Origin: Antedon mediterranea | Lineage: Eukaryota; Animalia; Echinodermata | Assembly (NCBI RefSeq): GCF_964355755.1 | Contig: NC_092680.1 | Coordinates: 20,965,045 to 21,029,044, forward strand | DNA length: 64,000 bases | Direction: 5' to 3' | Part shown: piece after piece, positions 1 through 60,811 of the stretch | Layout: every line of letters begins with the position of its first letter | Numbering within the stretch: the first letter of the stretch is position 1 | Notes under the pieces: model-generated | The model's database searches: none | Seen by the model: the letters and a program-made list of their open reading frames with translations, nothing else | What the model was told of the DNA's origin: nothing | Made by a program: the position numbers and the translations under genes

Positions 1-3000
1 CTCTAAATCGCCAGATGTTTCACTCTTAATTGCTTCTTCTATTGTCTTCTTAGATATCTGAAACCCAAATAATAAGTAACGACTGTCACAAAGCATAGTA
101 ACTATCAGTGTATCCGTTACTATCAGTATTACAAGAAGATTAAAATACTCACTCGTGAAAAACAAAAACCAAACAATTCGTTAGTTTCTAAACGATCAGA
201 GATAGTATATTCCAACACTAAAGCTCTGTCTACACTATCAAACTAGTTTGACAAAAAAAGTGTGATGTGCTCAAATATGGTAGTAATATGACATCAATAT
301 GTCCTTATATAAGCATATCACATTTGTTTGTCACAAGAAGTTTTGAGCTTAACACGAAACCTACCTTGTCATAAGCATCGAATGTAGCTCTTAGTTGGGC
401 AAAGCTTCTTGTTGCTAAGACACGCAGTATTTCAGATTCGTCCGTCCCCCATTTTGCTTCCCCAGCCTAAATGGTGTAAAGAAATCATCATCATTGATAT
501 AATTATTATTTTAATTAACCACTTTTATATTTAGTAAATGTCAGTAAACATTCAGTAAACCTGTTCTGCACCATGTTGTACAACTATGGCATTGGTACAT
601 CTTCACAACATAGTCATCTTTACCCTTTCTCCAAATATTGAAATGGTGTTATTGTTTTGGGGGTTGAAATTGTTGAAATGATAATGAAGACGGTAACCAA
701 TTATTGTTTATTTTTGTTTTGTATACCTTGTAAATGGCGTTGGCGTCCGCATTAGCTTTGCCCTCGTCGACGGTGGGGCTTTCATCTCTCGCAGCCTAAA
801 ATAAAAATATCATAATTTATTTCATGTAGGCCTGTTTTAAGAATGCTAAAACTCAAACATGTTAAATCTGTATGGTTTCAACAATGTTAAGCACTTAATA
901 ACAGTCCTCCTACCCAATGTTAAGTTGTGTCTATACTATCAAACTTTGTGACAAAAGTGATGTGCCCATATATGGACATGATGATGTCATATAACTACCA
1001 TATTTGGTAACATCGCTACCATATTTGGGCACATCACACAAGTTTGATAGTGTAGACGAGCTTTAGTTTAGCAAACTGTTCGACATTAGCTGTTGGATTG
1101 TTCCGTTAGATATAACAACCATAACACAAACCTGGCAACATGAAACCATAAGACGTTTAAAGTGACCGCTAGTCTCACTCATTAGATCCTTTTCCAAATC
1201 CCGTTTAAATTCTGCAAAATAATTTACACAAAAACAATTTACTAATGCATGCGTCTGATAAAGCTTTTAACACAAATTACAAATATTCGACCATATTAAT
1301 ATATTATGTTATTCATTTATTGTGAATAATTTATTAGACTATTTTGTGTCAACTATTATTGAGGCTTCTAAAAATTGTCCTGGATAATGGGGTTTAGTGT
1401 CAAAGATAGATTTATTCTAAAGCTCTGTCTACACTATCAAACTTTGTAACAAAAAACGTGATGTGCCCATATATGGACATGATGATGTCATATCACTACC
1501 ATATTTGTTCATATCACTACCATATTTGGGCACATCACATTTTTTTGTTACCACATCCTGATTGAGAAGTAAGCCTGTTTACCTTTCTTGTAAGCTTCCT
1601 TTATGCTTTTGATTTCCTTTAAAAGAAAAAGATAAAATTAGCAAACTTTTAAACGTAAGTAAATAAAAGTCAATATGGAGGATATGATTATACTGTATGT
1701 TATAAATTACAAATTACCTGGTTGGTTCGTGTACACATTATCTCCAGTATAGCTTTCTCGTCAGTTCCAGCACCCTTGAAATAAATAACATTAAATGCTA
1801 CCGGTACTTAGTATGACATTAGTTTCCAATGCTTTTGCCTATTAGGCCTACTACTAATGTTTTAATTCCCTATAGAGTTTGTATTATGTGTACACAATGA
1901 ATTAGTTTTTAATAGCCTTATCACTCATTATATATTGCGAGCAATCATAGATCATTCGTTAAAAAGTTCATTAACATTTTCGCTATTTAAGACTGCTTTG
2001 ACAAAACACTTTCACATGATTGTAATCATTTAAGTAGTTTTATATCAGCTGCTGCTTTTACGGAATTTTCGAAAGCTTCTCTAACTTTCGTAAGTCCTTG
2101 ATTGACACTGACATTATGATATTAATGTTGGGTTATTTTCTTTTGTTGTTGGCTCATATAATATCTTAGTTTATTCTGTATTAACTGTACTTGAGTGAGT
2201 GCATAATCTGCTCTAGCCTATTCTCGCACTCATGATTAGGACTATACAAAATACATTAGGAATTTCAATATTTTGTCACAATTAGCGTGCTATACCTTCA
2301 TAGCTCCTCGTAGAGACTTGGCGTCGTAAAACGCCGGTTTATCGAGCAGTGCTATTACAACATCCTCGTACTTTCCACCCAGCTCACTTTTCAGATCCTT
2401 TAAGAGGTCCTAAAATCAAAAGCAATCAGATTATGATTGATTTATATACCAGTAAAACGTGGTTCCCACTAGAAGGAAACGCAACGTAACGCAGCGACGT
2501 ATCGACGCAAAGTGCTTTATTGCGTAATCACAAGTGAGAACCTACGACACACTCAGTGCTGCAAACATCGCAGGTTTGATTCCACGCAGGCGGAGACGAA
2601 CACAATTATTAGAAGGACATTTTCTTATGTTGTGTAGGTTTCGTTACGTTGCGTCGCTAATGGGAACCTTTATTACGACATACCTTGTACATACATGTAT
2701 CACCACTTTTCTTGCAAGACCATACTTTAGTAGTGTATTAAGGTCGGACGTTTTACTTGTAGTATACCGAATAACGTTTTATTACAAGTCATAACTATTA
2801 ATGTTTTATTATAAAGCTCTAGTATTAGAACGCAACAAAACATGCACTGAAAGTAGAGCAGTTTTGTTATTCATAGCCTTGACGAAACAGGGACACTCGT
2901 TTCTGGATCTATGCTCAGCAGGCCTATGATACAGCTTCCCTCTTTACAGACCGTGTTTCCTTATATTAACTACTACCGTACCTCTTAAAGGCCAATTTAC

Positions 3001-5661
3001 ACAGACGAGCGGTAACGGTAAGCGGAAAACCGCGTAGCTTGTCATCTAATCTGTATCTAATCCAGAGCGGAAACCGCCCGTCCGCTCCGCGTTTTGTGAC
3101 GTAAATGGTCATAAGTAATAATATAGATTTTATATTGTACTACCGTTACCGCTCGTCTGTGTAAGATAGCCTTAAAGCTACAGTGCACACTATAATGTTC
3201 GAAACGAGAGACGGTGCTGTTTTGTTAAATAATGAAAAACATTACGATGAATTTGGCCTTTGGCGACGCGTCGTCTTCCGTTCCGTGAAACGGACTAGGA
3301 TGAGCGTGATAACTATAGTACAGAATTCTAATCTATTAAGCCTACAGTAATACAAGTTATATTAGTCATGTGCCCCTATTATTGAGTATTGTAATTCAAA
3401 CTATCATGTGACCACTTTCATTCTCTTAATGTTGTTCAGAGGTGAGAAATGTCACGTGAAATGTCTTGGAATGTAGCTCCAATTATTCCAAAAGAAAAAA
3501 ATAAAACTTAAAAAGAAAGTAAATCTTACATCTTTCAATATTGTTTACCATTGTTTAATTATTATAGTGGTTTTTTTTTGGGGGGTGGGCGGGTTTCTTT
3601 TTTTACCTTTCCGTATGAGGTTTTGAAGTGAATCACAATTTCCTGTCTCTGAGCGTTTGATCTGAACGCCAGTATATCGGTAATCGCCTGTTCGTCCGTT
3701 CCTTAAAAAAATGTTGCGGAGAATTATTATGTTTTGTTACGTGTTCAACATTGAATAGTAGGCCTATTCCTTGTTTTAGTTAGTCAGACATGCCTTACCG
3801 TGATATCTTTATAGCATGTACAGTTCATTCAAACGAAAACAATTTTTATTTAAAAAACCGAACAATCTATAAATAAAACTAAAACGAACAATCTATAAAT
3901 AAAACCAAAAGAAATACCAACAATCTATATAATTAAAAGAAAAACGAACGATCTATATAAATAAAAGAAAAACGAACGATCTATATAAATAAAAGAAAAA
4001 CGAACGATCTATATAAATAAAAGAAAAACGAACGATCTATATAAATAAAAGAAAAACGAACGATCTATATAAATAAAAGAAAAACGAACGATCTATATAA
4101 ATAAAACTAAATGAAAAAACTACTAATCTATATAAAACTACAACACGTGACGTGAACCAGGCACTTACGGACGGAAAGAAAATGCAAAATCAATTTAATA
4201 ATAGTAAATAATTTCGTGCAAAAAAATTCCCATAAAACAACTGCACCGTATACATTATGTATATCACTATACCCTATACAAAAATAGGGCTGTAGAGAAG
4301 TATGACCATTACTTAATGCATGACACATTACCAGCTGACTAACCTAATCCCTTCATTGCTTTCCGTAATGCACCACAGTCCGCTTCCTTGTCAAAGCCAG
4401 CATAGCTGCTTACAGTTCCCTTTAAATAAACATGAAATAAATGTTAAAACTCCTCATATTTCAGTATGTTATTGCATGAAGAAATTCTCTTCCATGACCC
4501 CAGTGTCATTTATTTTATTAAATATCTACAAAATGGTTTTTTTTTTTGAATGACAATTAAAATGTTACTAATTATTCTCGTTTAAAATAGTTGTTTTTTT
4601 TTTGTTGGAAAGATTTGACATTTTGCTTCAGGTGTTACTTTATATTAAAGACCTCAAAAGAATGTTCACTCCATTTAGTTCAACTCAGAGGAATATTGTA
4701 GGTATAGGTCAATGGCTTAGGTTAGGCCTACTGTAGACAGTTCTAAGCCAGTAGTTTTGGCAAATGCACTCCTCCAGATAACTACCTCGGGATAACTAAC
4801 CACGAAGGAGTGAACAAAACCTTTATTTATTTAGACGAGATGGCTTTGAATGTAGGCCTAAAGGTGGTGAGGCTCGTCTGATCTGTGCAAGAGATCAGAA
4901 TAAAATCAGTGCATCACTATGCCAGGTATTGTGTCTTTTTTTAGCAATAGATAAGTGATTTCCAGTTGAATACATGTGGTCACAATAGTACGGTCTTGTT
5001 CAATACATTATTTAACTTTAAGCTCTGTTATGTGGGTGTACTGAATAATACTGTCGTATTGTAGTAGCAATTGGTTTAGAGAAAATTACAAGGACACATA
5101 GAACTAACGGAAGGTAGTGGAAAGTTTACGCACCATGACCGAAATCTGTAGATATTTTTTCTGGACACGCCCTTTTCTTAATACAGTTTTTATCCGATAG
5201 GCCTAATGTAATATGTTTTAAAGTGTAATGCATTTACTATAATGTGGACCTAATTTTGAACAACTGAAGTAGGCCTACTTTTTTTTTAACATGAAAATAA
5301 TCCATGAATTTTACAGAAGTCTAATCTAATGTCACGTACACAAACCAGCTTGCAGATTTTCAGTAAATTTAAGTAATGAGTTTAAATAATAGTATTAGGA
5401 TAACGACGTCCATATGGGCCGTATTATATGGCAATTGTGTTATTTTAATGCATATTAAGTCTACATTAAAAGACCTTACGGTTATATGATTGTATTTGGT
5501 AATTGCAGCGGTTAACTTGACAGGAATGTTTGTATCTTTTCTTCCATTTGTCAAATCCACAGCCAAGTTAGAACCCGCTAAATACTAAACACTCTTCTGC
5601 CATATCAAACAGTTATCTTATAAACTTATTAATAAGTACCTACCTGACCTCTTGATGCCAT
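1..5661 (-). CDS. Annexin, canonical, short N-terminus (gene A); 3' end lies outside the window
   Basis: GT-AG exons 5644-5661 (MASRGQ), 4344-4419 (..LRKAMKGLG), 3607-3701 ([24 protein letters not shown]), 2296-2409 ([12 protein letters not shown]..), 1718-1774 ([18 protein letters not shown]), 1583-1616, 1132-1211 (..[13 protein letters not shown]), 727-795, 365-466 ([12 protein letters not shown]), 1-57 (..[10 protein letters not shown]). All phases are compatible and the endonexin GxGTDE motifs are present. Confidence 0.95.
221..345. mobile_element. ~150-bp MITE family (TIR AAAGCTCTGTCTACACTATCAAACT), partial copy
   Basis: Same TIR and internal gtgatgtgccca/atatggtagtgat repeats recur at least eight times in the window. 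Confidence 0.75.
926..1063. mobile_element. Same MITE family, both TIRs
   Basis: gtctatactatcaaact ... agtttgatagtgtagacgagcttt. Confidence 0.8.
1419..1550. mobile_element. Same MITE family, partial copy
   Basis: aaagctctgtctacactatcaaact plus the internal repeats. Confidence 0.75.
2455..2671. mobile_element. MITE-like element with ggttcccactag...ctaatgggaacc termini
   Basis: Imperfect TIR ggttcccactag-aaggaaacgcaacgtaacg / cgttacgttgcgtcg-ctaatgggaacc. A related end (ctagtgggaacc) occurs near 13552-13563. Confidence 0.65.
2987..3174. mobile_element. MITE (Harbinger-like termini)
   Basis: TIR aaggccaatttacacagacgagcggtaacggta / taccgttaccgctcgtctgtgtaagatagcctt. Confidence 0.75.
3860..4106. 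repeat. 28-bp minisatellite
   Basis: About 8 units of aaaaacgaacgatctatataaataaaag in an annexin A intron. Confidence 0.9.
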
Positions 5662-7336: not shown

Positions 7337-10300
7337 CTATTCCTTTAAAATGGCAAGAAGGACGTTTTTGTAGTCTCCACTGCAATCGCCTTTTACAAAC
7401 TTTTCAACTGTGTTGTTGTATTTCTGGATAAATTTCTTCTTTATTTGGTCAAGATCAATCTGAAAGAGTAAAACGTTTGATAGTGTTCATTTACGTTTTT
7501 TCCTGACGATAAATGCAACATAACGTAATCAAAAGATTTTTAATCCTTCCAATCTTCGAGCAACATGAACATGTGCTTCTATCGTATTTGGTTTTATATC
7601 ATTGGACATCTGGGCCAAGGCATTGTTGAGTCGCTAAACAATTTGTGTTTTCTTCCAACACATTTTATAAACTTAATGTTTGAAACAGTGATGTGTAAAA
7701 GTAATTGTTAAAACTTGGGAACTTAAGATTCAATTAATTCTATTATTTCAAATATCCTTAGCACAATACAGAGGCCAGAATTGTATAAAGGTATAGGTAA
7801 AAAAATCCCACAAAATTAGATATTTGACGAGCAAAGCCGGCAGAATTAAACAAATAGATGAAATTTAAATATTGCACGTATTTGTTTTAAAATGTACAAA
7901 TGTCAAGTTGCTCAAAGTTTCACCTACCTCGGATCTTGTTACGATAATGCGGATGAGTCGGTCGTCATCGGTACCAAGTCCCTTCATCGATTTGTACAAA
8001 CCTTCGACGTAGTAATCGATTACGTCATTGCTAAATTTAGCTATGAATAACAAATTATTGGTTACTATTTTAAATTTCGATTTTCAATTGTTAAGCACTA
8101 ATTTAGAAACTAATTATATTATATTTGAGGAAATTTATTTGATCGTAGGTTATAGATTGAAATTCATTTTTCAAAAGTAACATTTTTGTAGATATGACTC
8201 TCGAACTTTTGCTAATAATCATTTATTTTGTCCTCACCAATTGTCAAGTATCCGTCGCAAAGATCTCCAGATGTTTCACTTTTGATGACATCATTAATGT
8301 TTTTCTTGTGCGCCTGAAACAATTGAAAATACATTTTTTTACTACTTTTGTATCCTTTTTTCTTCAGGACCAACAATACAAAAATAAGAAATAAACTTCA
8401 AAAGCAGCTAACACAATTAGAAACTATTTAAACTGTTTCAGACTAATTAAAATTAAAATCCTAATAAGGTCAACAGCAGATTGTAACATACTTTTTCGTA
8501 GCCTGCAAAGACAGCTTTGAGGTGGGCGTGGCTTCGGGTTGCTAGGATACGGTTAAATTCAGATTCGTCCGTGCCCCACTGGTCCTCACCAGCCTAGTAA
8601 TTAATTAGTAAAATCTTTTATTAAATTATTTATTAACACAGCATAATATTTATCAATATTTCATTTTTTTTATTATGGTTTACATAACACATTGAAATAA
8701 ATAGATTGAAAAATAAAATAAATTAAAGCAAATACAAAATTCAAAGTTTACATTCTCTCTTTGGCAGAGCAAAATATCAGTTAAAATCAAAATGAAAAAT
8801 GTCCAAATTACTATGCATAGGCCTACCTCAAACAAAGTTTTTACGTCTTGAACGACTTTATGCTCGTCAACAACATCACTTTCATCTCTCTTAGCCTGTT
8901 TAACAAAAGAATAAAAAACATAGTTGATTAAACTTAAACAAGTTATTGTTATATTGTTGTAACAATATATATTATACGTATATGTTATCAGTTAACCAAA
9001 ACCAATAAGAGTTATATTCTATTACCAGTATGTTAGAAATAATTGATTATTATAAAGAAATATTATTCTTATTTATAATTTTGAAAAAAAAATGTTACTT
9101 CACATGTTTGTACATAGATAACAAAAAAGCAAGATTGTTACTTCAAATTACTTTTATTGTTAGCATAAATAAAATCAGACTTTAAAAAAAAGAATAAAAA
9201 TATACCGTGCACATTGAGACCAATAGACGTTTGAAGTGACCGCTTGTATCGTCCATTATGTCCTTCTCTAGTTCTCTATCGTAAACTAAAGCAAAAGAAA
9301 AAAGAAAGAAAATATAAAAATGTAAAAAAAGAAAGAAACAGTGTAAATGTTCAATACAAGTTTAATTGATTTAGTTTACACCATCTGATTCTGTATCTGT
9401 CGCTAGATACTGTCTAACCGACTACTGCAAGTCAGTTAGATACATACATATCTAGGTGTATTACATATACTGTTATACAATTCATGTTGTCTCTGTCAGT
9501 AGGTTCTTGTGACAGCTGTATAGAATCAGCTGTGGAAGTGGCTAGTGGTACATAACTTGTTGTATTTTGATCTATATTTAGATCCTTGTTGTATATTAGT
9601 TAATTATATGAATTATTTAAGAAGATCCTAAATACATGTTCGTCTTACATTAAGAAAGGATGGATGTAATTTTTAAAAATGAAACAAGAGCCAATCAAAG
9701 ACGTACCTTTTTTGTACATTCCTTTTATAGCTGTAATTTCCTATAAATAGATTAAGAGATTATTACCAATAAGATGCGCATAGAGTATGTATATTAAGTA
9801 TTTGGAGTAAAGCTCTGTCTACACTATCAAACTAGTTTGTGATGTACCCAAATATGGTAGTGATATCTCCAAATATGATAGATATCATCATCATGTCCAT
9901 ATATGGGAACATCACATTTTTTGTCACATAAAGTTTGATAGTGGAGCTTTCGAGTTCTCCTTGTTGACACCCCATTACATTAATCATAATAACATCTTTA
10001 TTAATAAAGGGTTAAGATCGTATAATTTAATGAATCATGTTAACCAACCCATGTTATTTTATTGCAAACACTGAACAGGTCAAAACGCGATGTCATAGTA
10101 CTTGTGTAATTGTATTGCATCCGCCATAGTATTGTTCGATTATGATAAATACAGTACTGGTAAATAGTAATACTTACTGCATTGCTTCTTGTACACATAA
10201 TCTCAATCAGTACTCTCTCGTCTGTGCCAGCTCCCTAGTAAGTAAACAGTAAATTAATTTATTTTACTGAACTACAATAGGATTGCAATAATGCATTGTT

Positions 10301-13109
10301 TAACTAAGTTATAGTGTTTTGATGTTCAAATATGCACGTTAAAAATGGTGCCGACTTTGTTCATATTGTGTCGGCCTACTTGTACGCACTGTGCATGTCA
10401 CACCAGCCATGCAGCGTTATTACATCCACAACTTTGAATAATAATGTCGGAAAACAAAGGATACGCTTTTGAGACATGCGCATAAAGATCTGTCTACACT
10501 ATAAAACTTTATGGTATGAAAATGTGATGTGCCCATATATGGACATGATGATGTCATATCACTACCATATTTGGGCATACTACCACCATATTTAGGCACA
10601 TCACACTTTTTTTGTCAAACTAGTTTGGACAGAGCTTCATGTTTGTGACGGTCGTATTAATCACAAGCATATTAATTAAAAACAACAGTTTTACCGATAT
10701 AGCCTTGTTGAGACTATGCACATCGTACTCGATCGGTGTCTGCATTAGTGCCAATATTGTTTCTTCGTAGTTCCCACTCAGATCATCTTTAAGATCTTGT
10801 ATCAAATCCTAATCACAATCCAGTGAGGTAATGATTAGTTTGTATTATTATTATCGATAAATATACATAGCACCAACTGGCGTATGTTGAACAATAGAAA
10901 AATACGAACATAAAAAGAAACGACAGTTGTTGCCGGTACCAAGGCACAGCACTGGGTACAGAACAAAGACTAAACTGACATCGCCAAGTAAATGAAACTT
11001 ATTGGGCGTGTGGGTATATAGAAAATAGGCTAATTCGCCTTTAAAGTGAAACAGTTTAATTTGGTTTCAGTGTATAACCAATAACACATACTAATAACAA
11101 CTAACAACATTTGAATAATGAATTGAATAATCCCAAAAACATTTAAAAAAAATAAAAGCGTTAGGATAATCAGTGCTTATATCTACTCCGTTTCAGTATA
11201 ATGATACTGCCCGTTCTAACTATGAACAAGATTCGCCTTCACGTCGATTTCGAATGTCACCAATGTTTTTTTTTGTCTTTGTCTATGAAATGTGTTACTT
11301 TTAAGAAGCATCTGCCGAATATAACTCACTTTTCCGTATGCTGTTTTGTACTGTTCCCGGATCTCTTGTCGTTGGGCATTGGTTCGGTTAGCAAGTATTG
11401 CTGATATCTGATCTTCATCGGTACCTATGTTTTAAACGTGGATCATTATTGCTCATTTTCTTACATGAAATACATTTGTTCTCTTATATTGTGATTTTTG
11501 CCAATAGTTTGCATGCGCCTTTATTTAAAGTTGGAGAATTTATGAGGCTTACTGAAAAGAATTGGGTAACGCTATTAGAGTAAACCATTCTCAATTGAAA
11601 ATCCAGATTAGACTATGTATTACTGTGGTAGTATTAGTAGCGTTTTTATATTTATTTAATTTAATTTGTCTCGTCATGTTGTGTTTTTGTGAGGGTCCCT
11701 AGTGATCAGCTTCGGCTGAATGAACCACCATCGTAAAAATATTGTTGAAATAGATAAATGAAAAATTTAATAATTATTGCTAACGAATAAGTCTAATGTC
11801 ATGTCTTTTTCGATCTAGCGTCGTCTGATGGACCTCTCAATTTCTTTCTATCATGTCTATTTCTTCAACAGCAATCCATATTCTAAATCTTGTCTTCCAA
11901 AATGATCGCTTGCCCTAGGTTAGTCTCCAGGCCACCAGCTCAGACACTACTCTTCTCTCGGAATTTAAGATCAATGTTAATTTGCTGTACTTACCTAGAC
12001 CTTTCATGGCATTCTTGAGAGCTTTTGCATCATCTTCCTTGTTGAACTTTGTGAGTGCTGATCGTATAGTACCCATTGCGCCCTACAAAATAGCAGAGTT
12101 ATTACAATCTGATGTGTTTGATCTGAATTAGCACGAGAAATAGTCACCACTGAATAAACTACCAGCACAAATTGCGTGTAATTAACTACTATTTTTACAT
12201 GTTTATATAGTTGATTGCAAAATGCATATGAATTGTTGACGTGGTCATTGGAGCCACAGCTTACGAGTAGCATTGTGCACTGTGCGCACGTAAATCAACT
12301 TAAGTCATTTATGCACTCATGCGTGTATAAATTAGTAATAATTAGTAACAAACACTAATTCAGTTACGTCATTATCTCGAAACTTTAAATTGATGGTTTA
12401 CATAACAATAAATGAATGTCGGTACCTGGCAATATTAGTATTTCATTCATGTATTTATATATTCTTGTCTATATATATATATATACAAGTCACGTGACAT
12501 GTCGTGTATTTAAATAGATAAATTAAATCGTGTTTTTAAGTAAGGACCCTACATGGAACCTCCCGATTTTTTTCGAAGTTATGCATTTTTGGCAAATATT
12601 TTGGAAACTCACAAATCGCCCACAACAAACAATCCGATAGTAAGCCCTGAAGTCGTCCACTAAACATACATCACCCATTAAGTAAACCTCAGTGGTCACA
12701 ACCAAAAACCAAGCGCAGATCTCTCCCACGTAATCTTGAACATCACCAACAAGCAAACTCACATCGACAAGACAATCTCCAATCGCTAAACCAAATTCGC
12801 ATTGTAGTGCGCAGCTTGGATTTAACAAATAAGGCAACATTTTGTCTTATTTATCTTGGTATTACCATATTGTTGTTAGATTACGAACTAGTACCGGTAA
12901 CTTACAATCTAATTTCAAGCTAAAAAATGAATTAAATAATTCCAATTCAGTTTGATGAATTCAATATCATCCGTTATGGGTGAAGTTTATTGCGCGTACG
13001 CAGCCATGTCATCAATTTTCTAACGCGCGTTTTTCTTTTGCGTGTTAGGCCTATACTAACACATAACTGTTACGGATATATATTTTTTGAAAATACCTAC
13101 CTTGCTCAT
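7337..13109 (-). CDS. Annexin, canonical four-repeat, ~319 aa (gene B), 12 coding exons
   Basis: Exons 13101-13109 (MSK), 11995-12082, 11330-11424, 10695-10808, 10178-10234, 9707-9740, 9206-9285, 8827-8895, 8492-8593, 8238-8313, 7928-8040, 7337-7459 total 960 nt and are open. Motifs [31 protein letters not shown] and GDCSGDY. Internal exon sizes match gene A. Confidence 0.95.
9809..9950. mobile_element. Same ~150-bp MITE family
   Basis: aaagctctgtctacactatcaaact ... agtttgatagtggagcttt. Confidence 0.8.
10485..10638. mobile_element. Same ~150-bp MITE family
   Basis: aaagatctgtctacactataaaact ... agtttggacagagctt. Confidence 0.8.
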
Positions 13110-14743: not shown

Positions 14744-17700
14744 TCACATCTCCTCCATATTTGCAAGCGGTACCAATAGTTGTGCGCATGCTCCGTGATA
14801 GTGCGCTTCAATATCCTCTGCCAGGTTTCTGTTGTATATCTCCCGATATTTGAGCACAATCTGGCAAAGATTGACCTAAGAAGATAAACAAAATTTATTT
14901 ATATGTTACTCTTTTAATTTAAAGAAATACAACTATTTTTTAAAAATACAAAATAAATGATTAAAACATTTATTTTTTTTAAGCGATTGCATAATAGTCA
15001 ACATTTATCAATGAATTGATAAGAAAGTAGCCTACAAGTGTATAAATAACACTATTTTCACGTGATCTGTCTCACATTTGAGTTACAACTAAATAGGCCT
15101 TATGTTACAATGTGTATTCATGTTTATCGGATGTTGTAACTATAAAACTACATTTTTCTGGCATCAAAGAATGGTGATATTAATGTCATTTTTAGAAAAT
15201 GTATGTCCAGTCGCAATGTCATATTTTCTCCATGGTTATTGTTAGTCAACACGCTCGTGGTGAACTCGTGTCATCAGACAACATGACGTCACTTTACTGG
15301 TATCTCGCAGCCAGCATATCATATAAATTATTCACAGCTATTCTGCAAGCTCATTAGTTATTCACAGAACAATATAAAACCATCTATGACCTATAAAATT
15401 AATAATCCTTTTGAAAATGCATATGATTCATAAGCATACAACTGTTGATTTGAATATAGTGTTATTATGCATTATGTTGATTTCAACAATCTAAAAATTG
15501 CGACATGAATAAACGAAAATTTACAAATTATTTGTTGTTGGGACTAATAAATAATGTGCAAACTTTTTTCCACTTGGATAACTATTCATTTCAAAAGCTT
15601 TGCATATTTATGATTTTTTTTTTTTTAATAAGGTCACCCTTTGAATCTTAATGTGTTCGTATAGCTCGTTTATATAATCAAACCGCGAAAAACACACTTT
15701 TTAAATAAATCGTACAAAATTATAAATGTTGAAGGTTTTTTTTGCCTATCTGGACATTGAAGTGTTTCTTCAAATAATAATAGCAGAATTTAAGCCTAAT
15801 ACAGGTCAAATTAGCAGTTTGACGAGTACCTATCTCTTGTATGTTAACAATAGTGAAAACTCATGAGGTAGATTTTTCTAAGCACACTTGACGTCCCAGC
15901 ATTTTACGGCGATGGCTCTACGGCGATATCGTAAATTTCGCAACAATTCGTTGTCAAATGATTCTCGGAAACATGTTTATATTGATGATGGTTAATTAAA
16001 ATGAAAGAAATTAACATTAAATTAAAATATACGTAGAAAAATGATTGTAATGAATTGCCAATGGTCTGTAATTTAGAAAGCTATCATCAGTTGTACCTTT
16101 GCACAGTTTACCAGGGTAGTTTCAACAGCCTCTTCGTCCAGGGTCGTATCTGTGGCTAATCCAAGAGAAAAGAAGAGTTTCACGGCACAAAACTTGGCTT
16201 CATCGGTAATATAATCAGCTAGGTGAAAATCAGAAACATGTTTTTTTTTAATGTTGACACTCCGACAAACATAATTTGATACGTAAAGCTCTGTATACAC
16301 TATCAAACTAGTTTGACAAAAAAAAAGTTTGATGTGCCCAAATATAGTAGTGATATGCCCAAATTCGATAGTGATAGGACATCATTATGTCCATATATGG
16401 GCACATCACATTTTTTTGTCACATAAAGTTTGATAGTGTAGACAAAACTTTACACGATACAAATGAGATGGGTGCGTCCCAACCCGGTCCCAACATAAAG
16501 AACACTTCCCAGAATTCTCATCCCAGATTTAATGATTTATTTATTTATGAACTATATAGTTATTATTAAATACATTATTTGACTTTTTAACTAAACTTCG
16601 CCTTAATGATGTTTTATATTTGTATTAGAAATACCTACCTATGTTTAAGAAACTCGCCTGTATGTTTCCTACCATCTTTCGTTTTATGTGGTATTGTATC
16701 CACCGGCCATACGTCTATATAAAAATGTATTCTAGATTTTGTAAGTTTTGTATTTTCTTAACCTTTGTTGTCTCTTAAATGTTTGTTTTTGATAATAAAT
16801 TGGGAACAAAAAACGAAAATGTATTATTTTTTGTATTATGATAAATTAATTGAAGGCGTTTTTCATTTCAACCATTTAAGTTAAGATATCAGTTATTTAT
16901 TGACCACACCTATGATTTAACGGTATAATAAGCTGACCTCGATCGGCGTATAATAAGCTGACCTGGATTGGCGTATTAATCGTAAATCGTATTATTAATT
17001 GGTGGCGTTTTTTAAAATAGTAAATCTATCTCCTATGATGAGTAAATGTTTGTTTAGTCTATTTTCCACACTAAGCGAATATATTCGCGCGAATTGTTCT
17101 CTGGTTTGTTGCGCATTTTCCGATCACAAAAAAATATATTTACACATAAATACGCATGCGCACAATCTGATTTGTGTGATTTGTAGTAAAGATGTTTCGC
17201 ATACTATTTCGTAAATTAAGTTGTAATCGATTTAGGCGCATACCAAACAAACGAAAAGATACAATTTTCTAGAAATTACTTTTATTGTATAATTTTATCA
17301 ATGAATTTTATGTTTAGCAACTTATTTGTTAACAAGTTGACTTTTTGTTCATTGTCATTAAGTCATTAACACTTACTATTTTATATTGGTTGAACACATC
17401 GTTGAGATGTGTTTTATCATGGGCGCCCAGAAGTCGTAATAACTCGCTTACATCAGAAGAAAATACAGCCTAAATAAAATGTTAAATATAATGTGCTCTT
17501 GTTAAAATATAATAGTCTACTTAAGGACTGTATGAAAATAAAATGTTATAAACATTAGGTAACTAGTTTGCACAACTTTGTTTACACTACTGATAATATT
17601 AAACACTTTTTCATAATGTAATTATAACCATAACATAACAGTTTTACCTGTCGAAGAGTGTAGGTGTCGCTCTCTACGTTCTCAGCTTTTACCACACCAT

Positions 17701-20113
17701 TTTCATTTCTCTGAGCCTACAGAAGAGCCACAACACAAGAAAATACGATATGATTGACAATAACCTTGTACTATTCTATCATTCTGTGAACGTTTTTGAA
17801 GGAAAATTGCACAAGTATCGGTCAAATAAGGACTTTAATACCATTCTGCGCTTCAAAGCATAACTGACTGTGGGTCACAAGAGGCAAATTAGCCTATGTA
17901 AGTATTTTGCAAAACACATCCCATCTACGAACGCACATCCCTACTACGCGAAATGAAAACCTAAATAAGTATGAAAAAGAAGTCTGCACTTACAGATGCA
18001 AGAGATCTTAAGACATTCTCTTCATCGCCACTAAATCCTTTCACCAAAGCTTGATCTAACGATTCGCTGGTATCTAAAAATAACAACGTTCTACAAAATA
18101 GTCATATTGCTCCTATACTCCTCTGTTCGAAATGTAGACGTTATTTAATTGATCAACAATAAACTCACTTTGTAGGCCCATATTAACAGTTACCTAATTC
18201 TGTTCTGATTCCTCTAATATAAAATATATAAATCTTTTTCTTCACTGTCGAGCTTCACTTCTTAGTATTCACTTAAGTACTTACCAAGTTTATATTGTTG
18301 TTGAATACGTTGAATTTCCTGTTAAAAATCAAAATAAGTCGTAAGATAGAAATAATATAAGTATAGTAATAATAATATCACCAAACCCAAACCATTATTA
18401 GTATGTCAACGCAATTTTCCCACCAATTTTAAGTTATGTTACAGGTGCCCCCTCGCGTGGGCTTGTTTCAAGAAAAACCCAGCAATAGAATACATTCAAC
18501 ATGATGTATAATAAAACAATTAAACAAAGAATATAAAGAAAATGATTATCATTAAAGCAATACATAAGTCAGCATTCATCTTTTTTTAAGTACCAGTTTA
18601 CCTCATTGTCATTTGTGATGAGTAGTGCGCTTGCGCGATCAGAGTCTTCGAGAAGTATGGATCTTTTCAGAGACTTTGTCACGTGGTCGGTTGTTCCGCC
18701 AATCAATGACGCCCAACAATCAGTTGCTATAATTGGAAATGCTTCTGACAAATCTTGCAAAAGATTCTGAAACAAAGATTTCATTTTGAGAACAAAGTAA
18801 AGGTTCCTTCTTTTCATTTATTGTCTGTTTATAGTTTCAGTTTCAGTTTCAGAAAGCATTAACCGATTAACATAAACATTTTTTCTATTTCTTCTTCTGT
18901 ATTGACATCCATCCACTGCTCCTTAGTATTTGTATGTATTTACTTTTCTATTTGTTGTTTTCTCTTTCTTTTCTTTCTGTAAGCCAACCTTTTTGCTTTC
19001 TCCTTTTTTCAGATATTAATAAAATCCTCTGCGAATCTCTTAATTTATGTGTTTCTCCGTCTAATTCGTATCTTTTCTAGATCAACTCTCTTCCCTTGTT
19101 GAAGAGAAAATCTTGAGTGACGGAGTAGGCCTACGGTCTTCTTGTCTCAATCTTTCACTCATATTATTTTCTCCCAAGAGATCATTATTGTGGTTACACC
19201 AATGTAACCTCTAATCTACGTCCCACACTCGCCTCTTCCATTATATGTTACTTACCGAGCCATAGGCCGCTTGGTAATATTTGCTTATACTCAGTCGGTC
19301 CGTGGCGCTACCCCTTGACACATGCGCAGCTACTGCCGTAACATTTGGTTCTTTTATCACAAAAAGTAAGGAAGGAGATGCGTATGGTTATTTTTAGATC
19401 AATATTTAAAATTATAATTTACTGTTTGGTTGGATGGTTTTCACGTATAATCGTAGTAGGCCTATTCAGATTTTAATTTGCCAATTTTTATTTGAAATTT
19501 AACCTGAAATCACTAGATCTACATCCTAAGTGCCGCTTTTAAATATTATTATTATTTCTGCGACACGACTCATTGACAACAGCTTACCAATGGATAATAC
19601 TTCCGATCTTATAGTTTGAATGATCACATCGACATCTGACTGTGGTATTGAGCACTAAAAATAATTTACAACATAAACTATTGAATAACGACATAGACAA
19701 TTAATGTAGGCCTACTGTATTCGTTCTCTTACTGTCCTATTTATTTTTTTTTACAAAAGTAGTTGAAAGAACAGAAGTGAATTAAAAGAGGCAAGAAAAG
19801 TGTATCTTCAAAAGTCACAATTACTCCAAATCATCATCATGATGAATCAACCACATTGCTGTACACTAGTCCCACAATCGAATAACAACTTATACAATAC
19901 CTGGTATACTCTATATTCAGCAGTCGACACATTACAAGGCGGTAATTCACCCGTACAAGCATCGACGTCTTGTACTTCTCGTACTCGATATTCTTGGGAG
20001 TTGTCAACGCATAACGCCCATTGTGTCCAGGAGTAACTTTCGCATCTCGCATGGCATTTATAAATACATACAGATTGTATTAAAACAAAATATAAAGCGC
20101 GTGTAAGAAACAT
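14744..20113 (-). CDS. Divergent annexin-fold protein with predicted signal peptide and TSP1-like N-terminal module, ~381 aa (gene C), 11 exons
   Basis: Exons 19901-20113, 19588-19654, 19256-19350, 18602-18766, 18285-18318, 17994-18073, 17648-17716, 17377-17469, 16639-16714, 16097-16218, 14744-14875 total 1146 nt and are open. Sizes 95/34/80/69/76 nt and the phases equal those of gene B. Residual annexin motifs: R..I...YQAAYGSNLLQDL, EIQRIQQQYK, AQRNE, YREIYNRNLAEDI. Confidence 0.85.
16285..16450. mobile_element. Same ~150-bp MITE family
   Basis: aaagctctgtatacactatcaaact ... agtttgatagtgtagacaaaacttt. Confidence 0.8.
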
Positions 20114-21914: not shown

Positions 21915-22062
21915 AAGCTCTGTCTACACTTGAAACTTTATGTGACAAACAAATGTGATGTGCCCATATGGACATGGTGATGTCATTTCACTACCATATT
22001 TTGCCATATCACTACCAAAGTTTGGCACATCCCTAGTTTGATAGTGTAGACTGCAGAGATTT
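21915..22062. mobile_element. Same ~150-bp MITE family
   Basis: aaagctctgtctacact ... agtttgatagtgtagac. Confidence 0.8.
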
Positions 22063-22353
22063 ACTTGAAACAAGAAACCAATCATCTTTTATTATGAGAA
22101 TAGCAACAAAGCAAAGTGGTATTTGAATATCATACAAAAATTAATAACTGAACTTGACCTTTTCAAAATAACCTTGATCAAATGGCTGGTAATGCAGCAA
22201 TAACAAATCTGAAAGACACAATTTGATACCTATTTTTAGGTTTATTCATGACAGGTTTACTCTGGCCCTGCAAGTTTACTACAGTAAAAAAAGAAAATTA
22301 AAAAGAAACATAAATACATAAATTGTGTAAACTTTTTTTTCTGCAGATAAAAA

Positions 22354-25300
22354 ATGACAGACTTATTAGTTCCTGATACTCCAGCAGGTCAGATGTCGAA
22401 TAGATGGCAAGACGAGGAGATGGTAGAGCCGTCTTGTTGCGGTCCTGTTCGTCCAAAGATTAACACTACTCCTATTAAACTACACAGCATTGTGTACATC
22501 GTCTGTGGAGTTTTGTCAATTGGATTGGGCATTGTAGCTTGTGTGCTTGATTGTACGTTCAAAGGATTGTCAATCCCAGCTGGTGTTCTGGTAAGGAAAA
22601 ATGAATTTCCATAGTTTATTTAACTAAACATCATGTACACCAGCCAGCATGCCATACTGGGCGAGACTACCATGTGTAGGTAATAGTTAATATTGCTGAT
22701 TTGTTAACAGCTCAAATGGTCACATAAGAAATTTTCTAACCATGAGGTATACAATTGTCATTTTATACTGCCAAGTACTAACTAACATACTGTAATGTGA
22801 ACATTAACAGAAACAAATCTGTGAAGAAAAGTATATGTTTGATTTTAAGGTGTAAGTTATACTGTAATGCCAATTGAATTAAATTCAATTGAAGAACATT
22901 GGCTTAGATTCATTCAAATAATGTAACAACACACCATGTATGCAAAATAATGCATATACAAGCTACAATGTAATGCTTTCTTTTTTCTTTATAGCTTATT
23001 AGTACTGGTGTTGTTGGACTGATTGTTAGAAAACATGGAGTGCTGGTACAGTACAATGATCATTATTTGCATTTGTTAAAAAGAATAGTATTGTCCATTC
23101 TCAGTCAAGTTTGGATTTATTTTTAGGGAGTTAAAGGGAGTAGAGACTTGGGTGAATAGAGAAATAAAACAATACTTGGGTAGGAGGAAGACCTTAAAAT
23201 AGGCTTTAGGGTGGATGAAACTCTCATCACCAACCACCCCCAACAGAATTACTCTATAATCTTTACTTGATTGTAGAAGTATATGCTTATGTCTTTACCA
23301 AGTGTGCGCCCCCTACCCCAACAATTTTATAGCCATGTCTTTTTAAAATAATATAATGAGTATTTTTTTATTTCTGCAACCCAACTGATAGATTTTATAA
23401 TATGAAATGTTGAGCCCCTAATCTAGAATGCTGGATCTGCCCTTGTTTACTATCATACAGTAGTAGATTATGAATAAATAATGCTTTGGCTCTAAAAGTT
23501 TGATTTTATTGTGAATCAAAATAATAATATGAAATTTGTTAAATTACAGGCAATTGTCTATGGATGGTTAAACCTGTTTTGCTTTGGTTATGGTCTTACC
23601 CTTCTTGTTTTTATGATGATTGCTCTTCCTTTAAGAGAGGGTAACTGGGAGGAGTTTTGTTCAAGTTATGATTGCAAGTATTGGTATACTGATGATGGCT
23701 GTTGTTACGATGAAAAACTCAGCTTAAAGGTATTGGTTAATAATTATAATGCCAAGCATCTAATAGTAGCCTGTCAGAAATCACCTTCACTAGTGAGATA
23801 AGCGTGTGTGAATAAAATTCCCAAAGTAGGTTAAGAATATATTAGACAGATATTGATTAATTATTAACTCCAGGTAGGGTAATATAAAAACAGGGATTTA
23901 ATGAGAAAATTTACATTTTTGTTTTCTGTTTGAATCCAATACAGTAGTTGACAGTTTTTTCTGTAATACATTAATAATCATGACAATACTGCTATGATAT
24001 AGAGAGTAAGCTGTATTATGTTTAATAGTGTTCAGGGCAGACCACTGTACATCTGCTTTTGGTTCTTCCAAACATTTGTAGCATTATTCTTACCAGATAG
24101 GTATAGTCCTGACAGATAGTATTGTCAGTACCATTTGCTCGATTCTCTCATTAATGAGATATTGTACAAGAGACACAAATCATTGTATTTACTGTACAAC
24201 AATATGCATGACCTACAGTACAACTATCCATCTTCGCTAACATAGCTCTAAAATGTTTTTTTTTTCTTAGTGGGGGAATGTTTTGATTGATCTTGGAATC
24301 CTGGTTGTTGGTGTTATCGTCATGGTTACATCATTAGCAGCTGGTACTCTTAGTTTACGTGACCTGAATTGGGTCAAACTCTGCTGTTTGAAAAAGAATA
24401 GTTTGGTAAATTCCTCTTACTTATTTCAAATTCAAATATTTTCAAAAACTGCACAGTAAAATTAGACACATCTAAATATTTACATTAATCATAACAAGAA
24501 TAGAAATAAACAAAATAAATTGGCTTGTATCACAATTATCAAGTGTTCTAATAAAAAACTTCTAATTAGAAACACAAAAAAATTTAAAAAATCTCTCACA
24601 CACTTTTTTTAATCGGAAACTCTTCCAAAATCGGAAACTCTTCCAAAATCGGAAACTCTTCCAAAATCAGAAACTTTCTTAAAATCATAAATTTTCCTAA
24701 AATAAAAAAATATTCTAAATCAAAAAACTTCTTTCTTATTTTTGTTTGTGTTTATACTGTAGCAAGCAGGACAAGTTGTTGTTCCATCCCAGTCTTCTGG
24801 TAAGAGTACACAATTCAAATATTAAGCAGAATGTTGCATATCTCAATTGTATTGATTTTCTCATCTTTACCATTTAAAATTAATTGATATCTAGTATATC
24901 ACTGGGCAGTTTAGAATTTCTTTTATGTCATATATTTGTAACAATATAACAATTAATATTATTATCATTAAGATTAACATAAGAACAATGAAATATTAAT
25001 TATTAAATTATATCATGTGCTATGTATAGAGACAGAATTAGAACCTAGTGGTCAATCATCATCATCATCATCATCTTTCATGAAGCAATGTTGGACACCA
25101 TGTGATAGTAATGGTCATCGTAATGCCACTATCATCTTAAGTATCATCCACATCATTATTGGGGTCATCAGTGTTGGACTTGGAATAGGAGCATTAATTG
25201 TTGAATGTAGATATGCTCATATTGGAATGCCAATCTGGACAGGAATACTGGTAGGAACATTAGTATGATATTATAACATCAATTACCTTAGCTTATGTCA

Positions 25301-27974
25301 AAGAGCATTTCATCTTAAAAACCCACATATTTTATATTTTTACTGCCAGTGTCAGTAGAGTCCCGTTCACTACTGGACATTTAAGACATTTGATCTTCAT
25401 AGATCTTCATAGATCTTCATAGATCTTCAAAGATCTTCATAGACTACAAATTTGAAATAATTAAGAGTAAATTACAAATTGCATTCAATTTGTTATCTTT
25501 TTTTTATGTTAAGGAAACCTAAACACTTATTGAATATTTACTTTGAATATTTACTTACAGATATTTATGGTGACTGGTTTTTGTGGATTTCTGAGTACCA
25601 CAGAGAAAGGGGCATATGTAAGTCACTTAGATATTAAAACTAAACATTTTGACATGCTGTTCTGTCTAAAATCAAAGTTCTTTGTTGGATATTCACTCTG
25701 TATGTGTTTATTTTTCACTTGTGTATCTTGTATCCAGTATCCTATGTTTAAATCTCTGTCTACTCTATCAAACTTTGTGACAACAAAATTTGATGTGCCC
25801 ATATATAGACACGATGATGTCATATCACTACCATATTTGGGCACGTACATCACATTTTTTGTCAAACTAGTTTGATAGTGTAGACTAAACAACATAAAAC
25901 ATCATCTTCTTTCAGATTCCTTGTTTCTTAGCCTTCTCTGTTTTAGCATTCATTATGTCTATTAACATGTTTACCTGGGCAGCTGTTAATATTCCTGCAG
26001 AACCAGATTGCGCTCCAAAATGTTTTAAATGGTGTACTGATGATACTCAAAACTCATATAACTCGTATAGGTATAGTACACCTGATCCTAGAAGATACTG
26101 CTGTGATCTTGGTGAAACTTGCATTGCCAATACAGAAGCGGTAAGGCTATTTAGTTGTAGATGTTAATTTTGAATTACTTTGTTTGAAAATATTTTAATT
26201 AAAATGTTTACTTTCCACAATAAAAGAGTTGGACAAGACCTCCTTCATCTGGGTGATGTTGTGGATATGAATTAAAATTCCAGGGTGGTTGTTAATATTT
26301 AAAAAATAAACCTACTACCATATAAGGACACATTATTTGAACCTAACACTATATAAGGACGCATTATTTTAACCCACAACAAATCCACTCCCAAAGACTT
26401 GTAATAAGACTTGTTTATGTAGAGCATCTTGTATATGTTTGTCTTAAGATAAGATAAGATAAGATAACTTTTATTGATCCTCAAAAAGGAAATTCATTGC
26501 TCGTCATAATAACAAGAAAACACAATAAAAACAAATATAGCATAAAACCATTCATATAAAAACATCAAAAATACAAGATAAAATTATCTTCTTGACTTTC
26601 TATTGTACTGGATGATACCTGTCTTGTGAACAGGATTGCCACTAAAGAAGGATAGTGAATGAATTTCTGGTTATCCTTGGAAATTTGCCTAAATATAGAA
26701 AGAGAAAGAGATAAGTACACATTATTTTATTGTATTAACTGATAAACTTCATTTTTTTTTTGCAGGTAGTTATAGACTGTTTAATTGTTGGATTTGGTAT
26801 TTTGGAGATGTTCGTTTGCATGGCAACGTTTGGTCTGTCTTTTTCACAACTTAGTTGTTACATGTGTTGCCATAATGGGTGTTGCTCTAATTGTAAATGT
26901 GTTGAAACTCAGGTAAGTTTATTTATATATATCATTCTTAAAATTGGAAGACTAATAATGAGGGATAGGAAATATGTATGGAGTTGAAACACCATCTTAC
27001 TCAGTTACTTTGTAGTAGAGATTAGCTTAGTGGTTAGTGTACTTGCCTTCCATTCCGAAGGTATAGGGTTCAATCCTGACCAGGGTGTAACTCACAACTG
27101 TTTCTACTCCACCACCTAGTTTATCCATCTTGTAATTTGCGAGAAACTAAACTAAAAATTCACTTGTAAGATAAGTTTACTAAATAATAGTCAAAACAAT
27201 GTGGTGTATGATTTGGTTATTGTTTTTTTTTTTTAACTATTATTTTAGACCTCACTAGTTCACATGAGGTGTTCCTGTCACAGAATTTGACCTATTACTA
27301 TAACCCAGGTGTTAAGAAATTCATTGTGAGGTGCAAGTCATTCCCCTTTCGATATGGCTACATTATTTTTAAAAGTAACTGTACATTCCATATATTCCAA
27401 TTCCAATGATTTTTGTAATTTTCATATGCTCGTAATAACAACAATTTTGTTTTTTCTTTTTCAGACCAATACTGCATACCAAATGGTGATGACAACCGAT
27501 GGTAACCTGATGATGGTACCAGTACCAATTACACAGCACGGTATGACACCTTCCTTGGTAAACAACCAACAGATGATACCTCAACCAATGGTGATTCCTG
27601 CTAATCAGAATCAAACATCAGGGTCTCCTGTCCAGCCAAACATAGTTGGAGGACAGTTGCTGGTCCAAGGGAACCAACCAATGATGTTTCAAGGAAATAC
27701 ACAGCCAATGATTGTAGTTCCTGGTCAAGCTCCAGTGTTTGTTCAAGCAAATAGACAGCCAGGAATTCAGCAGCCAATGGTTCCAGGCATGAGTCAGCAG
27801 GTTCAAAACCAGATGCAACAAAAGAACCAACCAGCGCCACAAAGTCAGCTAACCAACCAGACAGCTAGCACACAGGTCCAAGCAGGGTCACTTCCACATG
27901 GAGTTGAATCGCCTGCTGTGGTCAGCGAAGATGCTAACCAAGGCATTGAGGTTATTTCAGACCCGACCGTCTAA
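22354..27974 (+). CDS. Double MS4A/CD20-like membrane protein (2 x 4 TM) with Gln/Pro-rich tail, paralog 1, ~599 aa
   Basis: Exons 22354-22590, 22995-23045, 23550-23729, 24271-24405, 24763-24799, 25030-25250, 25561-25617, 25916-26140, 26766-26912, 27465-27974 total 1800 nt and are open. MS4A-like motifs LSIIHIIIGVISVGLG and GMPIWTGILIFMVTGFCG. Each half has four exons and four hydrophobic helices with a Cys-rich TM3-TM4 loop. Confidence 0.8.
25750..25886. mobile_element. Same ~150-bp MITE family
   Basis: aaatctctgtctactctatcaaact ... agtttgatagtgtagac. Confidence 0.8.
27016..27088 (+). mobile_element. Degenerate tRNA-derived SINE head
   Basis: A-box-like tagcttagtggtt and B-box-like gggttcaatcc at tRNA spacing; poor acceptor stem. 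Confidence 0.5.
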
Positions 27975-32549: not shown

Positions 32550-33250
32550 TTTTAAAAATGTGTATCGTCGACCCACCAGCTTTTTAATGATGAATGTGAA
32601 ATTCTAAGGAAGATTTTTAAGCGTCTGAAATATCTAGATGAACTAATAACAACAACCATACATAACTTTAAACCAGCAGAGAGCAATAACAACACTGCAG
32701 AAGGTGAAACAGATTTATCCGAAATACCAGTGCAAATCATCCTGCCATTCAAAGACCAGAAATCTGCGAACTCCGTCAAGCGACAACTATGTCAACTAAG
32801 TCACAAGATAAACAAAAACATTGTCCCTGTATTCATAAGTAAAAAAGTTAAAGAACATTAGGAAAGTCGAAAAGAAACCAACTATTATAAGTCAACAATG
32901 TGTTGTGTATAAATTTAAATGTGACTTGTGCGATGCAAGTTATGTTGGATATACATGCCGACACCTCTACCAACGCATTGTTGAACATAGTAGATGCTTA
33001 ATAGGACAGCATTTGAAAGATCATAACGTGATTGTTAATCCCAGTAAAATTAATTCATGTTTTAGTATACTTAGGAAATGCAAAAACAAATTTGACTGTC
33101 TTATCTATGAAATGTTGTATATCAGACAATTAAAACCTAGTCTGAATAAACAAAGTGACTCTGTAAAAGCTAAGCTTTTCATTTGACAGGATGTTAGACA
33201 ATAGGTCTTTTGTTATTTAAACTTTGACCCTTGGCTTGTGCTACTTGATT
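32550..33250 (+). mobile_element. Penelope-like retroelement 3' part (linker + GIY-YIG endonuclease), decayed
   Basis: ..LPFKDQKSANSVKRQL.., then a frameshift, then VVYKFKCDLCDASYVGYTCRHLYQRIVEH..LIYEMLYIRQLKPSLNKQ (ORF 32905-33186). Confidence 0.9.
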
Positions 33251-34584: not shown

Positions 34585-35413
34585 TAAGGTAAGGTAACAC
34601 AAATTCAGAAAGTTATTGTAACTGAAATTAAGCAGTAGACATAAGCATAGTATTATAAATTATATTAATTAAAATAGTTTTTTATAGACAAATACAATCA
34701 ATAAACATACAAAATCAAAGCATGGATAACAATAAAAATAACGGTGATGAAAACGAAATATCAAATCCAATGGATATACTATTTAATCCAATATCTATTG
34801 ATAATGGTAATAATGACCATGACGAATTCATTGAATATAGTCTCAGAAACAAGCTAAATGCTATTGAGACATGTTCTTATATGAGTCCATATGACTTGAA
34901 TGAATCTGTGAAGAAATTAAAAAATATTGGCTACTCATTTCTTCACTATAATATTCGAAGTATCAATAAACACATTGATGAACTAACTACATACCTAAAC
35001 TTAATCAACCACCCCTTTACAGTTATTGGTATATCGGAAACATGGTTAAACAATACATCGTGCAAACCATATTTACCGAGCTATGACTTCCTCGCATTAG
35101 ATAGGAAGAACCGTAAAGGAGGGGGAGTTGGTATGTTTGTTTCTGCTACAATTGACATAAAAGAACGAAAAGATCTATTTATTGAATCTTGTGAATGTAT
35201 TTTTATTGAAATAATTGAAAAAAAATGTAACAATACGATTGTTGGTATAATATATAGACCTCCCGATTCGAATATAGAACTTTTTAATAGATCACTAGAC
35301 GATATTCTTAATACTATTGATATCGAGGGAAAATCATGCCACATTACGGGTGATTTTAACATTAATTTACTTAAGCATGCATCGACTGATTTTGTAAATA
35401 ATTTTCTAGAAGT

Positions 35414-41235: not shown

Positions 41236-41401
41236 AAGCGTTATTTTTATATTATGTATTTACAACAAACGTACTCTCATTCGTAAATTAGATTGTACAT
41301 TTATTGCCACAACAGAACAGTAATGAAAGTTGACGAAATATAAGAAAGACACAAAAACTAAGAAGCTGTAATAAACAAAACTATTATTTTCTGCAGGGAA
41401 A

Positions 41402-60601: not shown

Positions 60602-60811
60602 CTATAAAAATTTAGATTTATCTCGGTCAATAATATAAACACACCTCTGAGATAACTTCGTTACAATAAAAAATAACAATGAACCAATCTATTGCGTACA
60701 CTACGTACGGATAAGTTTTGTGTATTCTTATCCTAAAATTTTATTTTTTTTAAATTTGTACAAATAAATAAGAAACCATTTGTCTAAATTAGTAGAGTAG
60801 GCCTAATTTAC

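Follow-up and report, generated by a model that had tools for sequence, protein, structure and literature searches.

A predicted secreted annexin in crinoids: a thrombospondin-type module ahead of an annexin core without type II calcium-site motifs

Introduction

Annexins are regarded as proteins of the cytosol that lack signal peptides, and how they leave the cell is a matter of dispute (PMC3588008). Here we describe a gene on the minus strand of a stretch of Antedon mediterranea DNA (contig NC_092680.1, positions 20,965,045 to 21,029,044; all 64,000 nucleotides of it constitute the window, to which coordinates below refer), in which a hydrophobic leader and a module resembling the thrombospondin type 1 repeat (TSR) precede an annexin core. 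The encoded protein has the four-repeat core and its fold in common with canonical annexins (A4, A5, A6 and two neighbours in the window), and the gene shares intron positions with the neighbours. Together with two proteins of the crinoid Anneissia japonica it very likely constitutes, to judge by sequence, an annexin-derived, secreted and calcium-independent subfamily, here called TSR-annexins.

Annexin A9 resembles the TSR-annexins in having lost the type II calcium sites of all repeats and in being calcium-independent, and differs from them in lacking a signal peptide, as annexins generally do (PMC3588008). K/H/RGD motifs are present in annexin A9 and missing from all three TSR-annexins. To our knowledge, annexin A9 carries no TSR. 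As in the protein described here, the 4F01 effectors of Heterodera (Hs4F01 and Hg4F01) have an annexin core behind a predicted signal peptide; these are proteins of 340 residues with four annexin domains, for which the available text mentions no added module and proposes an action in the cytosol of the host plant cell (PMC2791119, PMC4388550). Theirs is an unrelated lineage, and presumably a separate origin. TSRs are found in secreted proteins and in extracellular protein parts, with roles in attachment and glycosaminoglycan binding (PMC2173040). The literature searched yielded no TSR-annexin and no study of crinoid annexins, the main phylogenomic survey of atypical annexins lying outside its coverage, and the available part of a bacterial annexin survey does not mention thrombospondin (PMC3894181).

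The annexin fold appears to have been re-engineered here for the outside of the cell, with a leader, a matrix-type module, new cysteines and a glycan site on an old calcium loop, and these extracellular features are kept across two paralogs only 30% identical. The subfamily provides a natural test of an annexin core without calcium and what looks like a clean domain gain through intron 1. Its members are candidate components of crinoid matrix, skeleton or immunity, hidden by automatic "annexin A4/A7-like" names.

Gene structure and crinoid relatives

The spliced-gene analysis covered the 64-kb window, which is AT-rich eukaryotic DNA (GC content 0.334). The TSR-annexin gene runs from 20113 to 14744 on the minus strand in 11 exons; all introns (10/10) have GT-AG ends and the spliced exons read through 381 codons to a stop, at the very positions where a preceding sequence-only reading had placed 11 such exons and a frame of about 381 residues. 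The leader, the C-x4-WxxWxxC and RxR motifs and the two sequons described in that reading are likewise all present in the exon translation, the sequons at N61 and N96. The parts of the gene are:

20048..20113, minus strand: predicted signal peptide, codons 1-22 (exon 1), from hydrophobicity windows and the leaders of the relatives
19901..20047, minus strand: shortened group-2-like thrombospondin type 1 module, residues 23-71, from the sequence and the alignment of ortholog and paralog
19588..19654, minus strand: exon 2, with Cys72 as first codon (the module's last cysteine), then helix A of annexin repeat I
19256..19350, minus strand: exon 3 (95 nt), ex-calcium loop of repeat I with sequon N96; helices B-C
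18602..18766, minus strand: exon 4 (165 nt), end of repeat I with C142, start of repeat II
18285..18318, minus strand: exon 5 (34 nt), repeat II
17994..18073, minus strand: exon 6 (80 nt), helices D-E of repeat II
17648..17716, minus strand: exon 7 (69 nt), II-III linker and helix A of repeat III
17377..17469, minus strand: exon 8 (93 nt), helices B-C of repeat III; weak Pfam Annexin match (E 0.17)
16639..16714, minus strand: exon 9 (76 nt), helices D-E of repeat III, basic/aromatic segment
16097..16218, minus strand: exon 10 (122 nt), helices A-B of repeat IV with C308 and C336
14744..14875, minus strand: exon 11 (132 nt), helices C-E of repeat IV with C342, C368 and stop; Pfam Annexin match (E 0.00048)

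With splice matrices trained on 20 donors and 20 acceptors of the two neighbouring annexin genes, none of the 20 splice sites of the TSR-annexin gene falls under the 88th percentile of background sites (1203 GT and 1080 AG), and the donor of exon 1 is at percentile 93.7. Just 5' of the start codon, an acceptor-like site (score 5.2) is found at 20121; an upstream non-coding exon is possible.

A search with exon 4 gave a single protein among 47 candidates, XP_033112447.1 of A. japonica (381 residues), which is identical to the window protein at 237/381 positions (62%) over the full length, and at 40/71 in exon 1. This ortholog matched 10 of the 11 window exons in tblastn, in collinear order, and missed exon 2. 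A reading in which exon 1 continues into a retained intron was rejected, as the ortholog crosses the exon 1/2 junction in spliced form. It is likewise very improbable that the gene model is an artefact, with exon 1 a separate small secreted-peptide gene beside a degenerate cytosolic annexin. An unspliced frame of 88 codons does exist, in which exon 1 continues to 19850, and XP_033112447.1 and the second relative described below (XP_033118711.1) are themselves computed RefSeq models. However, three models from two loci and two species agree on the junction residues and the cysteine, the new cysteines and sequon of the core make sense only outside the cytosol, and the stop-to-stop frame with exon 2 (19654-19529) has a Met only past the donor.

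A HMMER search with the ortholog against 1.84 billion representative sequences gave 475 matches at E ≤0.001, of which the best 150 were examined. One more protein among these 150 spans module and core, the A. japonica paralog XP_033118711.1 (582 residues), which aligns to residues 24-376 of the ortholog with 30% identity (E 2e-44). It consists of a hydrophobic leader, three full TSRs, a linker, a shortened repeat and the annexin core, with four WxxWxxC repeats and 36 cysteines in all. Besides Annexin, Pfam finds TSP_1 at 21.8 bits (cut-off 21.6), where the full repeat at 151-197 is the best stretch, and TSP1_spondin below the cut-off (E 7e-7). Among the 155 proteins compared, WxxWxxC occurs only in XP_033112447.1 and XP_033118711.1.

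Both A. japonica proteins thus have the architecture, the ten cysteines and the lost calcium-site motifs of the window protein, and the proposed fusion recurs in two proteins of another crinoid, one an ortholog and the other a distant paralog. XP_033118711.1 alone has the three additional full TSRs and the linker, and the two A. japonica proteins are 30% identical. Their names ("annexin A4-like" for XP_033112447.1, "annexin A7-like" for XP_033118711.1) are automatic, and neither names the leader or the TSR; the architecture of the paralog may be listed automatically in InterPro. The predicted subfamily is seen so far only in crinoid-type sequences, in a comparison that covered the best 150 of 475 matches, below which a fusion of TSR and ordinary annexin from another phylum could lie. 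A word-index search with exon 1 gave no match, and with the ortholog it returned only the ortholog itself among 4413 candidates; the exon 1 search must be considered insensitive here, because the ortholog is present in the searched database and yet was missed.

Leader-like N-termini without a TSR were noted in four more annexins among the matches listed, i.e., one cluster of 8 and another of 5 members, a protein of a click beetle in which a long acidic repeat region is present, and a tick model. Given these and Heterodera 4F01, the leader alone is not new, and secreted annexins may, from such N-termini, have arisen several times. Other annexin fusions among the matches join a Hemingway/CFAP97 domain to many annexin repeats, and an Fn3-associated domain to annexin repeats.

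The annexin core and its calcium sites

The ortholog matches Pfam Annexin (PF00191) over four stretches (81.9 bits, cut-off 25), and exon 11 of the window alone gives a match below the cut-off (20.6 bits, E 0.00048). The ortholog was modelled with AlphaFold2 in place of the window protein, using an input of 70 rows (ortholog, paralog, window exon 1, and 67 of the 148 other matches, mostly canonical annexins). The model has a predicted local distance difference test score (pLDDT) of 85.8 and a predicted template modelling score (pTM) of 0.79, with pLDDT about 88-98 in the annexin core; from the single sequence, pLDDT was only 37. Foldseek with this model returned annexins, the best being annexin A4 (E 2e-16), and the ESM Atlas model likewise matches annexins, with template modelling (TM) scores of 0.66-0.69. 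The annexin fold expected for this gene was thus obtained, on the ortholog model.

In a type II calcium site, the AB loop is combined with an acidic residue located some 40 positions further on (PMC3588008). In the window protein, ortholog and paralog alike the count of GxGT motifs is zero, as in just 4 of 69 comparison annexins (67 database matches and the two window neighbours), and the acidic caps are present in 0/4 repeats, while the comparison annexins have them in 62, 65, 60 and 52 of 69 for repeats I-IV, respectively. Since all four type II motifs are lost, ordinary calcium-dependent lipid binding is unlikely. In repeat I, Pro95 sits at the position of the GxGT threonine (Thr in 54/69 comparison annexins), which places the common sequon N96 within the former calcium loop. 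As far as its sequence tells, the core is annexin-derived and not a canonical calcium-dependent annexin.

The thrombospondin-type module

The module contains C24, W29, W32, C35, R43, R45, C53, C60 and sequon N61, and receives Cys72 from exon 2. Residues W29, W32, C35, R43 and R45, corresponding to the Trp ladder with its cysteine and to the paired-Arg strand, are kept in both ortholog and paralog. A cysteine ahead of the Trp ladder, WxxWxxC and RxR are shared with the group 2 (F-spondin-type) TSRs (PMC2173040). The module differs from these in the alignment by having five cysteines, not six, with the AB-loop and terminal ones missing and an additional one in the BC loop; it also has no CxxS/TC fucose motif, and lies under Pfam detection. 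TSRs with fewer than six cysteines do exist (PMC2173040).

The assignment draws its support from the paralog, because this protein has the same module as the last of its four WxxWxxC repeats, with which the window module aligns, and passes the TSP_1 cut-off. A profile of the three full repeats of the paralog gives 24.1 bits for the paralog's own short module, with 0/1000 shuffles as high, and a weak 9.9 bits for the window module (3/1000 shuffles as high). The feature similarity of the module to TSP1 clusters in ESM Atlas (0.87) is a lead only. Several results weigh on the other side. The Pfam profiles for the repeat (PF00090/PF19028), TSP_1 included, match neither window exon 1 nor the ortholog, a PDB sequence search with the module gave 0 matches, and the AlphaFold2 module of the ortholog is unreliable (pLDDT 37-56, with strands at 32-38, 44-50 and 69-71). 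The same full-repeat profile gives the ortholog module 3.1 bits, with 65/1000 shuffles as high. Unlike glycan-binding TSRs, the window module has a net acidic composition, with 4 Arg to 8 Asp/Glu. The module claimed by the sequence-only reading as TSP1-like is supported by way of the paralog and not by a direct Pfam match of exon 1, and its interpretation as a shortened group-2-type TSR is supported by motifs and alignment. No second copy of the module was found in the window.

Signs of secretion

The most hydrophobic windows of the protein, whether of 9, 11 or 19 residues, all fall within the leader, where the 11-residue hydrophobicity is 2.25, compared with 0.57 and 0.05 for the N-termini of the neighbours. 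Hydrophobic leaders are also present in the ortholog (1.87) and the paralog (2.67). We consider it highly probable from these features that the predicted protein enters the secretory pathway, and likely that the leader is cleaved after Ala22. A protein that enters the pathway but then remains inside an organelle, or whose leader is left uncleaved and serves as an anchor, appears improbable. Cleavage is a prediction, and the 19-residue hydrophobicity maximum is at the N-terminus, but that maximum is modest (1.33), and small residues precede the first module cysteine in both the window gene and the ortholog. Furthermore, no membrane anchor or KDEL-type retention signal was found at the C-termini of the three proteins.

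All ten cysteines of the mature protein are aligned in window protein, ortholog and paralog, with the reservation that one of four alignments has the C142 column out of register, owing to a nearby gap. In repeat IV, C308, C336, C342 and C368 are present in all three proteins; among the 148 other annexin matches (best 150 of 475), 144 have none of these and 4 have one. They replace mostly Phe, Arg, a variable residue and Tyr, respectively, of other annexins. Of the two sequons, N61 is shared with the ortholog, and N96 is common to all three proteins.

From these features, secretory entry, cleavage after residue 22 and N-glycosylation would be expected with good confidence. The same applies to five disulfides, two of which would lie within repeat IV, two in the module and one perhaps between module and repeat I, the pairs being putative. 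A glycan on N96, in the first ex-calcium loop, may obstruct flat membrane docking of repeat I.

Possible functions

We favour, at a probability somewhat short of one half (about 0.45), the reading that the protein is secreted and serves, independently of calcium, as an adaptor at the matrix or cell surface. The four-repeat core, presumably locked by disulfides, and the TSR module ahead of it would here connect the extracellular matrix with cell surfaces or with sulfated glycans; the basic/aromatic helix D region of repeat III might bind a polyanion without calcium, and the TSR module or modules might bind a matrix protein or receptor. In evolutionary terms, an intracellular, calcium-switched membrane binder has likely been turned into a protein of adhesion or matrix that works outside the cell and is locked by disulfides. 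Binding of collagens II and X is known for annexin A5 (PMC3588008). The helix D segment of repeat III has a net charge of +4 in all three proteins, compared with a mean of -1.2 and a maximum of +3 in 67 others. The adaptor reading is tempered by the fact that this segment is one of eight, examined after seeing the alignment, so that its charge is a weak lead, and by the acidity of the whole protein (34 Lys/Arg versus 51 Asp/Glu). An acidic module in an acidic protein counts against glycan binding by the TSR itself.

The same acidity could point to a secreted skeletal matrix protein of the calcite stereom, whose acidic surface binds mineral or mineralising vesicles, a reading that we regard as doubtful. 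Net acidity of the protein, with repeats I, II and IV acidic, would suit it, as would the sea urchin spicule matrix, which is rich in annexin-domain proteins and has two Thsd7b-like proteins (PMC2909932). However, acidity is ordinary among annexins, and no urchin protein of such architecture is present among the best 150 of 475 matches.

The basic and aromatic segment of repeat III can also be read as serving calcium-free recognition of anionic lipids exposed by dying cells or on microbial surfaces, in an opsonin or pattern-binding protein of coelomic fluid or mucus whose TSR arms reach phagocytes. Annexin A9, without type II sites, still can interact with membranes (PMC3588008), TSRs are found in properdin and complement factors (PMC2173040), and the fast evolution and long branch of the family are in line with such a role. 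We nevertheless judge it unlikely, considering that just two A. japonica paralogs were found among the best 150 of 475 matches, with no sign of a large variable family, and that the N96 glycan would occupy the membrane face.

Returning to the favoured adaptor, a narrower version would have crinoids possess a dedicated extracellular TSR-annexin family, in which the calcium switch is swapped for disulfide locks and the proteins act as collagen-fibril/glycan cross-linkers in ligaments or attachment tissue. This version is speculative and carries low odds in our estimate. Crinoids have mutable connective tissue, from which the proposed tissue role is taken. If the cross-linker version is true, the annexin fold would be a structural matrix module.

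Proposed origin of the fusion

Exon 1, carrying leader and module, ends in phase 0, as do the neighbours' first exons of 9 and 18 nt. The first residues of exon 2 are Cys-Ser-Ile, those of exon 2 in one neighbour Gly-Thr-Val, and the neighbours start exon 2 with a Gly codon. HMMER places the exon 2 start of the ortholog on the N-terminal Gly-Ser-Ile of annexin A6, and such an N-terminal motif is found at about the same distance in 21/38 testable short matches. The last cysteine of the module comes two residues later than in full repeats. These observations fit a fusion via intron 1 in which the cysteine was contributed by the annexin. An annexin copy would have exchanged its tiny first exon for the 5' part of a secreted multi-TSR gene, by way of the phase-0 intron 1 already in place, and the Gly with which exon 2 of the annexin begins would have become the last cysteine of the module.

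In a quick tree of 52 rows (5 focal, 40 matches of 295-345 residues and 7 C-terminal cores), the cores of the three TSR-annexins form one group (support 100) whose branches are very long, and the tree does not name their parent. The proposal of a tandem duplicate therefore holds to the extent that descent from the neighbours fits position and intron pattern, these being its only basis, and not as a placement in the tree.

Neighbouring annexin genes

Both canonical annexins lie in tandem after the TSR-annexin gene:

7337..13109, minus strand: canonical annexin, 12 exons, 319 residues, no leader
1..5661, minus strand: second canonical annexin, extending past the window edge

The two neighbours are identical to each other at 134/233 residues. 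Intron phases agree among all three window annexin genes as far as the partial neighbour runs. The TSR-annexin exons of 95, 34, 80, 69 and 76 nt have the same sizes in the neighbour at 13109-7337, and the partial neighbour (5661-1) has 95, 34, 80 and 69 nt in common. Exon 4 (165 nt) takes the place of the neighbours' 114- and 57-nt exons, i.e., one intron is absent. The annexin core is identical to the full neighbour at 71/272 aligned residues (score 220; maximum 69 in 500 shuffles). This score, far above the shuffles, together with the matching exon sizes and phases, bears out the homology that had been claimed despite low identity.

A short element, probably a MITE-like (miniature inverted-repeat transposable element) repeat, is scattered through part of the window; it contains an internal repeat of 21 bp, and copies occur in introns of each of the three annexin genes as well as elsewhere:

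995-1035, 1488-1538, 9839-9886, 10555-10604, 16330-16376, 21984-22035: copies of the dispersed short element

Other features of the window

Two similar multi-exon genes, apparently duplicated, with long Gln/Pro/Met-rich terminal exons, lie on the plus strand at 22351-27971 and 41375-48062; they show weak CD20/MS4A-like matches (E 0.022 and 0.012), and the gene at 41375-48062 has a 27-bp coding repeat at 47417-47813. A 399-bp tandem repeat of 3.5 copies occupies 59205-60625, with related copies upstream (57414-58456) and open frames on both strands, one of which was checked against Pfam and had no match. Between 32839 and 40507 there are nested pieces of retroelements:

32839-33183: GIY-YIG
33326-34612, minus strand: reverse transcriptase
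34659-35465: endonuclease
38642-40507, plus strand: reverse transcriptase

A 365-codon frame on the minus strand at 60792-61886 encodes a PHD finger and an OTU-like domain, and a frame for a Mutator-like element (MULE)-like transposase is located nearby at 54557-56509; the two are possibly parts of one large DNA transposon.

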